A stretch of DNA of 64,000 nt, taken from contig OX597832.1 in the NCBI GenBank assembly GCA_951406725.2, positions 60,450,001 through 60,514,000 of the forward strand, read 5' to 3'. The notes under the pieces are model-generated. The model did not search any database, was not told the DNA's origin, and was given only the letters and a program-made list of their open reading frames with translations. The position numbers and the translations under genes were made by a program. Origin of the DNA: Octopus vulgaris (taxonomy: Eukaryota). Below, one piece after another: positions 54,640 to 54,827 of this stretch (position 1 is its first letter; each line of letters begins with the position of its first letter).

Positions 54640-54827
54640 CTAATTAGTATGCAGAGCACATGATGGCGTTTGGCCAATGAAATGGCAGCATGGCAGGGAT
54701 GGCAGCACATGACAACAGCAAGCAGCAAGGCATGATGGGTGATGAAAATAAAAGAAAAGCACCATTGGTAAAAACGTTTCAACCAACATGCATTAAAAAA
54801 AAAAAACCATTATTTTATACCAGAAAG
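54640..54827 (-). promoter_or_regulatory. splicing-regulatory intron end: AG exclusion zone with distant branch point candidate and YGCY cluster
   Basis: No AG on the minus strand between the 3'ss (54640-41) and 54828; about 12 YGCY; no pyrimidine tract next to the AG; TTTAAT branch candidate near 54793 with a U-rich tract at about 54741-54760; UGCAUG at 54787-54792. Confidence 0.8.

Follow-up and report, generated by a model that had tools for sequence, protein, structure and literature searches.

The poison exons of SR and hnRNP genes are ultraconserved autoregulatory exons of splicing factors. The octopus element described here resembles them in the extreme conservation around a putatively autoregulated cassette in a splicing-factor gene, but unlike them its cassette is in frame and would alter the localization of the protein rather than trigger NMD. 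In mouse and human, an MBNL1 exon completes a multipartite NLS, and MBNL1 binds between the branch point and a weak acceptor to cause skipping (PMC5082313, PMC7901844). The mouse Mbnl1 branch point lies at -141, the acceptor is AAG, and the MBNL response region spans 90 nt (PMC7901844). The same autoregulation was described for C. elegans mbl-1 exon 7, with FOX-1 as co-repressor and a FOX-1 site upstream; conservation was shown there within Caenorhabditis only, and the available text of that source does not align the exon to the mammalian element (PMC10773944). Muscleblind proteins from fly, worm, Ciona and Trichoplax were reported to repress a human exon 5 minigene (PMC5041496). A survey of bilaterian-conserved regulatory DNA listed 25 segments, several of them in genes for RNA-binding proteins (PMC10735318).

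We analyzed 64,000 nucleotides of Octopus vulgaris DNA (contig OX597832.1, positions 60,450,001 to 60,514,000; hereafter the window), which contain the 3' half of an Octopus muscleblind gene on the minus strand. In a protein search with 3690 matches, the ZF3-4 exon was 100% identical to Octopus muscleblind proteins. For exon mapping we used the window together with 110 kb of neighboring sequence, 174 kb of octopus DNA in all. The exons for ZF2, the linker and ZF3-4 are followed by the cassette and the KR exon, and the order of these five matches that of vertebrates; behind them come several more small exons and then a third pair of zinc fingers (Table 1).

The cassette exon contributes the first KR half to the bipartite NLS, and both its position, between the ZF3-4 exon and the second KR exon, and its phase are those of vertebrate MBNL1 exon 5. 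A KR..D.L core aligns the cassette peptides of 19 proteins from molluscs, arthropods, a hemichordate, echinoderms, amphioxus, lamprey and pig, and the peptide of the annelid Owenia reads KRPLEATDDL. We identify the 69-nt exon as orthologous to vertebrate MBNL1 exon 5, which differs in being 54 nt long and in following an AAG rather than a TAG acceptor.

We surveyed isoforms in 120 of the 3690 matching proteins. In oyster (P0027/P0029), abalone (P0063/P0061), Ptychodera (P0022/P0002) and lamprey (P0038/P0062), one and the same species had a form that includes the cassette and a form that skips it; such a pair was also present in amphioxus (P0053/P0008). The pair from the genus Octopus (P0100/P0001) came from two species; both forms were not seen within one Octopus species because all isoforms in the examined O. 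sinensis cluster (10/10) skip the cassette. RNA contigs of runs X15 and X16, from a related animal that is probably another cephalopod, contained the cassette spliced at both ends. In these runs the cassette was joined straight to the linker exon (..RADRLE), with the ZF3-4 exon skipped and the junction at window position 54641; such a transcript would encode a nuclear isoform with one zinc-finger pair. Outside Bilateria, four coral muscleblind proteins (P0139, P0175, P0183 and P0194) have a KR segment directly behind ZF4 and the closely similar P0191 has none, a pattern which suggests that the NLS cassette is alternatively spliced there as well.

A first-pass annotation of this DNA had drawn attention to the intron end before the cassette as an AG-free zone of 186 nt with about 12 YGCY sites, no proximal pyrimidine tract, and a gtacta donor directly after the exon. 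Each of these features was present as described: exactly 186 nt separate the acceptor AG, which ends at 54640, from the preceding AG at 54829-54828, we counted 12 YGCY, the acceptor has no pyrimidine tract, and the exon is followed by gtacta. The zone ranks second among the YGCY peaks of the window's minus strand, where the mean is 1.65 per 186 nt and 0.66% of windows of that size reach 10. Out of about 2960 AG gaps, 11 were at least 186 nt long, and only two of these, this zone and 16509-16186, held 10 or more YGCY. At five mapped constitutive acceptors we counted one YGCY each in the upstream 200 nt, compared with 12 at the cassette. The element is single-copy in the 2.8-Gb genome. The locus has in common with the vertebrate MBNL1 element an orthologous exon at the same position and phase, a long AG-free YGCY cluster and the lack of a proximal pyrimidine tract, and it also shares with it the start of the donor and colinear words that flank the exon. 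Like C. elegans mbl-1 exon 7, which is repressed by MBL, it has a KR-encoding cassette and a FOX-1-type site in the upstream intron (PMC10773944); our use of the name RBFOX-type for TGCATG follows the same source.

Table 1. Mapped features of the octopus muscleblind locus in transcription order; positions are window coordinates unless marked.
Feature	Position	Strand	Evidence or remark
ZF2 exon	129057 (extended window coordinates)	minus	exon mapping
Linker exon	~93983 (extended window coordinates)	minus	exon mapping
ZF3-4 exon	74286 (extended window coordinates)	minus	exon mapping
AG exclusion zone at intron 3' end, 186 nt, 12 YGCY; intronic splicing silencer region	54642-54827	minus	counted
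Upstream TGCATG, RBFOX-type	54787-54792	minus	invariant in 5/5 invertebrate sequences, also in mouse oligo as2
Branch-point-like block, invariant A at 54765 (-126), then invariant YGCY 54761-54758	54758-54771	minus	conservation
U-rich tract behind branch-like block (distal polypyrimidine tract)	54744-54757	minus	present in 5/5
YGCY core with CCAnnATGC	54699-54739	minus	conservation and mouse oligos as5, as6
12-mer common to mouse oligo as5, inside YGCY core	54725-54714	minus	exact match
Upstream arm of possible 10-bp duplex	54706-54715	minus	complementarity
YGCY aligned with key mouse site in as6, inside YGCY core	54707	minus	by-eye alignment
14-mer, part of mouse oligo as7	54654-54667	minus	exact; intact in 0/4 of L013-L016
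Non-canonical TAG acceptor lacking a pyrimidine tract; CTAAT word whose A is at -5	54640-54652	minus	11/14 vs intronic part of as8
Cassette exon, 69 nt, in-frame, phase 0-0	54571-54639	minus	peptide PQVVEVLTGKKRPREPADDLVTL
Donor without +5 G, and first downstream block	54530-54570	minus	10-mer across junction = as10
Second TGCATG, in first downstream block	54549-54544	minus	8/9 identical to end of as11
Second downstream conserved block	54476-54495	minus	invertebrate conservation
Downstream arm, exact reverse complement of 54715-54706	54487-54478	minus	within second downstream block
Next exon with second KR motif, orthologous to vertebrate exon 6	47646-47786	minus	exon mapping and protein alignment
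Third zinc-finger pair	4630-4541 and 1289-1180	minus	exon mapping

We looked for the element in other invertebrates by a protein-anchored scan of metagenome contigs, in which 5 of 31 candidates were confirmed, representing four loci (L013-L016). L013 and L014 are bivalve-type, with exons 96% and 90% identical to those of Mercenaria and Mya. The best named protein for L016 reached at most 74% and one transcriptome entry 80%; judging from the likeness of its KR exon to that of Owenia, our guess is that it is probably an annelid. L015 matches loose ends of run X19, so the two were counted once, and records 11 and 12 of X19 and 5-7 of X16 were left out as short or of low complexity. Together with mouse, the taxa whose element DNA was compared are octopus, the two bivalve-type loci, L015 and L016.

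All four loci kept the element, with 109-128 of 153 positions identical to the window and AG-free zones of 161-241 nt holding 11-13 YGCY. When we compared the loci with the 174 kb of octopus DNA, the element was the only match besides microsatellites and coding exons. The YGCY core was identical to the window at 40/41 positions in L015, 37/41 in L016, and 38/41 in both L013 and L014; the values for L016 and L013 compare with 23/67 and 26/67 third codon positions in the ZF3-4 exon (34-39%; p ~1e-8, Fisher). The five sequences did not vary in the upstream TGCATG, in the branch-like A at -126 with a YGCY and a U tract behind it, in the word CCAnnATGC, in a core of 20 nt, or in the CTG|GTA donor. 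The bivalve-type L013 and L014 lack the 3' third of the element (36/59 and 26/59). The first downstream block was conserved at 36/41 positions in L015 and 38/41 in L016, and in L013 and L014 both downstream blocks were kept but have moved together by 300-450 nt (L013:10510-10590; L014 about +270 to +350 from the donor). In run X16, the cassette showed 0/69 differences from the window versus 9/60 in the adjoining exon ends (p 0.0007, Fisher), and the intron had 2 substitutions and 1 gap over 136 nt. A strict gapped pattern gave 0 matches in metagenome contigs, and the 20-nt invariant core gave 0 in genome contigs and 0 in viral contigs. An ultraconserved element as defined by Bejerano is 200 bp or more at 100% identity; by that rule, applied to identity with mammals, the octopus element is not one, and near-identity is confined to close relatives.

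Conservation of this kind might have another source, such as undetected coding sequence, a small RNA, repetitive DNA or contamination by vertebrate DNA, and the region is indeed more conserved than nearby coding exons. We consider any of these highly improbable. Indels among relatives have lengths of 1, 2 and other non-triplet values, which argues against hidden coding, and none of the 47 Rfam matches lay within 54400-54870, since all fell on flanking microsatellites. The element is single-copy, the exon peptide is mollusc-type, and 14 of the 24 sequencing runs listed hold all 22 sampled words of the element; when the 7 runs marked as a possible source are set aside, all 22 words are still held by 7 runs with 5 organism codes from 6 studies.

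The first-pass annotation had also proposed a branch candidate about 150 nt upstream of the exon. Only two yTnAy-type words occur in the 186-nt zone, with the A at -154 and at -5. The word at -154 (TTAAT) is the proposed candidate, but it is not conserved in any of the four other invertebrate loci and we rejected it. The likely branch point, as far as conservation can place it, is instead the invariant A at -126. Its counterpart lies at -191, -176, -122 and -142 in L013, L014, L015 and L016, respectively, compared with -141 in mouse; L016 carries a canonical CTGAT at this block, and the CCGATG word of mouse oligo as3 matches the block of L013 and L014. In octopus and the four other loci an invariant YGCY stands 4 nt behind the branch-like A, whereas mouse has no YGCY beside its branch point. 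This arrangement would allow MBNL to compete directly with U2AF.

The second word, a CTAAT at 54647-54641 whose A lies 5 nt before the exon, is common to mouse as8, L015 and L016, and to L013 at -17. Because it is too close to serve its own AG, we take it to be possibly a decoy or a binding site for a STAR-family protein (QKI/SF1).

For the mammalian side we used the 17 antisense 20-mers printed in PMC7901844, which tile mouse Mbnl1 from intron 4 into intron 5. Mouse was used in place of human; the silencer was reported to be 100% identical between the two (PMC5082313). The comparison is one of 20-nt oligos from a single species, with gaps of unstated size between them, aligned by eye. In number order and on both sides of the exon, at least seven oligos were colinear with the window. 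They share TGCATG as a 6-mer (as2), 15/20 positions with 1 gap at 54748-54730 (as4), an exact 12-mer (as5), 12/20 with 1 gap (as6), an exact 14-mer (as7), which is the longest exact run, 11/14 intronic bases with 1 gap (as8), an exact 10-mer across the donor (as10), and 8 of the last 9 positions (as11). The YGCY of as6 that falls on the window YGCY at 54707 is the mouse site whose loss matters most (PMC5082313). Oligos as3 and as12 matched the window weakly and as9 is exonic; by eye, as1 and as13-as17 had no match to the window. The vertebrate blocks that the first-pass annotation had quoted were found in published oligos as5, as7, as8 and as10.

We assessed how often such words would be shared by chance. 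The 12-mer and the 14-mer each occur once in 174 kb, and as a pair they occur once in 2.8 Gb, at this locus, with 0 occurrences of a reversed control. Shuffles of the zone that kept 2-, 3- or 4-mers contained both words in order in 0/150000, 0/100000 and 0/60000 cases, and a Markov estimate for the pair, corrected for 72 x 56 word choices, gave 1e-5 (order 1) and 4e-4 (order 2); these tests cover the shared words only, which were chosen after the match was seen. Three words that are invariant in the five invertebrate sequences and the mouse oligos appeared in order in 0/90000, 4/90000 and 1/50000 shuffles, uncorrected. The nucleotide similarity to the mammalian element is thus above shuffled background, and the claim of such a likeness made from the octopus letters is borne out by colinear oligo matches of which the two longest words lie far beyond it.

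Similar letters could also have arisen by convergence, if selection had independently favored clusters of MBNL and RBFOX sites ahead of a weak acceptor around the same exon, for the same feedback logic, and so given similar low-complexity words. The only long word common to all six sequences, an invariant 11-mer, is a YGCY-built MBNL-type site that alone turns up in 0.3-0.5% of shuffles, and the 14-mer is exact only in octopus among the five invertebrate sequences, with indels inside it in runs X19 and X20, so part of that exactness may be luck. C. elegans, moreover, uses YGCY and GCAUG sites for the same logic, and no sequence homology to mammals is reported in the available text (PMC10773944). 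We nevertheless find convergence unlikely. The shared letters include positions outside YGCY (CCAnnATG, CCATC, CTAATTA, CTG|GTAC and the downstream block), the joint nulls are 1e-4 or lower, and order and spacing are kept over about 250 nt. Different invertebrates also keep different mouse-like pieces, such as a 9-mer that L013 has in common with as8 and 16/20 positions of L015 with as7, as descent predicts.

Common descent of the element, most likely as nucleotide-level homology across the protostome-deuterostome split, is the reading we prefer. Retention since that split, as the first-pass annotation had it, stands as the best reading of the data, qualified by the short oligos of one vertebrate aligned by eye and by the 14-mer, which is not invariant in invertebrates (0/4 loci). 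We think it very probable that the octopus module is the orthologue of the vertebrate MBNL1 intron 4/exon 5/intron 5 autoregulatory module, runs the same feedback, and has its sequence from the bilaterian ancestor. The same feedback is suggested for octopus because the anatomy fits the vertebrate model point for point; MBNL binding, repression, NLS function and RBFOX action are carried over from work in mouse, human and worm, and the position of the branch point from conservation.

In the proposed mechanism, U2 and U2AF would assemble far upstream, on the A at -126 as branch point and on the U tract that follows. The spliceosome would then have 126 nt of AG-free, YGCY-packed sequence to cross before it meets a weak acceptor. 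When nuclear Muscleblind is abundant, it would bind the YGCY sites, including the one 4 nt behind the branch-like A, and the exon would be skipped. Skipping would remove half of the bipartite NLS and make the protein more cytoplasmic, so that nuclear MBNL would limit itself by negative feedback. The RBFOX-type motifs that flank the exon may tune inclusion by tissue.

The second downstream block raised a further possibility, that RNA structure mainly drives skipping. Here a 10-bp duplex between 54715-54706 and 54487-54478 would loop the exon out, and MBNL and RBFOX would shift the equilibrium; this would add to the main explanation without excluding it. Both arms are invariant in 5/5 loci. The downstream 10-mer occurs once per locus in all five, at +84, +511, +338, +66 and +77 from the donor, and so was retained although displaced to +511 and +338; over the full length of each locus (4.6-174 kb) there is no other perfect complement, and the 3' invariance of the 10-mer stops at the end of the helix. 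Predicted pairing was 0.77 in the window, 0.45 in L013 and 0.98 in L014, but 0.0 in L015 and 0.002 in L016, and when two further segments of the window were folded (z about 0), their MFE structures lacked the duplex. No compensatory change was seen among the loci, a 10-nt complement appears in 0.9-2.8% of shuffles, and the site was among the six best duplex partners in L014 only. The complementarity of the downstream block to the core is also a difference from mouse, with no counterpart seen by eye among oligos as11-as17. On balance we regard a leading role for the duplex as possible but doubtful. Two other structures were considered and rejected: a stable local fold (z 0.12 and -0.08), and a helix between the upstream TGCATG block and CCAnnATGC, which is broken without compensation in 3/5 sequences.

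Returning to common descent, we extend it tentatively, and with slightly more doubt than confidence, to an RNA module of about 320 nt comprising an RBFOX site, a distant branch point, a U tract, an MBNL core, an odd acceptor, the NLS exon, a weak donor and a downstream RBFOX block. This module would have been fixed in the last common bilaterian ancestor, would be alignable from octopus to mammals, and would be functionally exchangeable with its human counterpart, the splicing of which goes wrong in myotonic dystrophy. Spiralians would have added the exon-bridging duplex, and the cassette may predate Bilateria, given coral proteins with and without the KR segment.

The vertebrate element and its feedback loop were known already, as was the loop in C. 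elegans, and what appears to be new, as judged from the literature covered, is sequence alignable between a protostome and a mammal, along with the conserved RBFOX motifs on either side of the exon and the possible duplex. To our knowledge, the non-coding segments known to align between vertebrates and protostomes number just a few dozen, nearly all of them promoters, enhancers or UTR pieces. If our reading is true, this set gains a splicing silencer whose mechanism in humans is known and which is relevant to disease. Because the invertebrate copies have diverged, they reveal which positions of the mammalian ultraconserved element have been held longest; the branch-like A, the core 11-mer, the acceptor word and the donor would have been held for more than half a billion years. 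The reason for the ultraconservation thereby becomes testable by swap and mutation.

The segments surveyed in PMC10735318 are likewise non-coding, alignable between vertebrates and protostomes, and kept in position and orientation relative to an orthologous gene, the anchor here being an orthologous exon. Those segments are described there as promoters, enhancers, 3'-UTR segments and one intronic segment, whereas the octopus element is a putative splicing silencer. MBNL is not named in the main-text passages of that paper or in one supplement. As described, its screen removed conserved regions that encode protein, and this filter may have dropped an element that abuts an exon (PMC10735318). 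The present case suggests that a class of ancient splicing elements has escaped screens in which regions touching exons are discarded. We found no protostome-mammal alignable intron sequence at this exon in the literature covered; Gates 2011 and Kino 2015 lie outside that scope and may bear on it, and the available text of PMC2853123 contains none of the element's motifs.

Some further observations concern the remainder of the gene. Within 16509-16072 on the minus strand, another and stronger AG-free zone extends for 321 nt with 23 YGCY, largely in CTG-type repeats, before an exon of 113 nt. The peptide of this exon is similar to the vertebrate VPMVHG.. exon and also to mollusc 'NYFD' segments, and it is probably a second MBNL-repressed exon; the region had no nucleotide match in L013-L016. 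At 61290-62761 and 14742-15461, both in low-GC bins, the minus strand has long AG-free tracts of simple repeats; these are ordinary microsatellite arrays. Two small exons, at 45874-45836 and 36693-36658 (minus), encode the near-duplicate peptides SSTKLNEIQPYFT and SSTKLNEPYFT, apparently through tandem exon duplication. The exon at 4630 can also be read in a second frame, as AGHPPTVPRF-stop, and L016 has the same dual reading.
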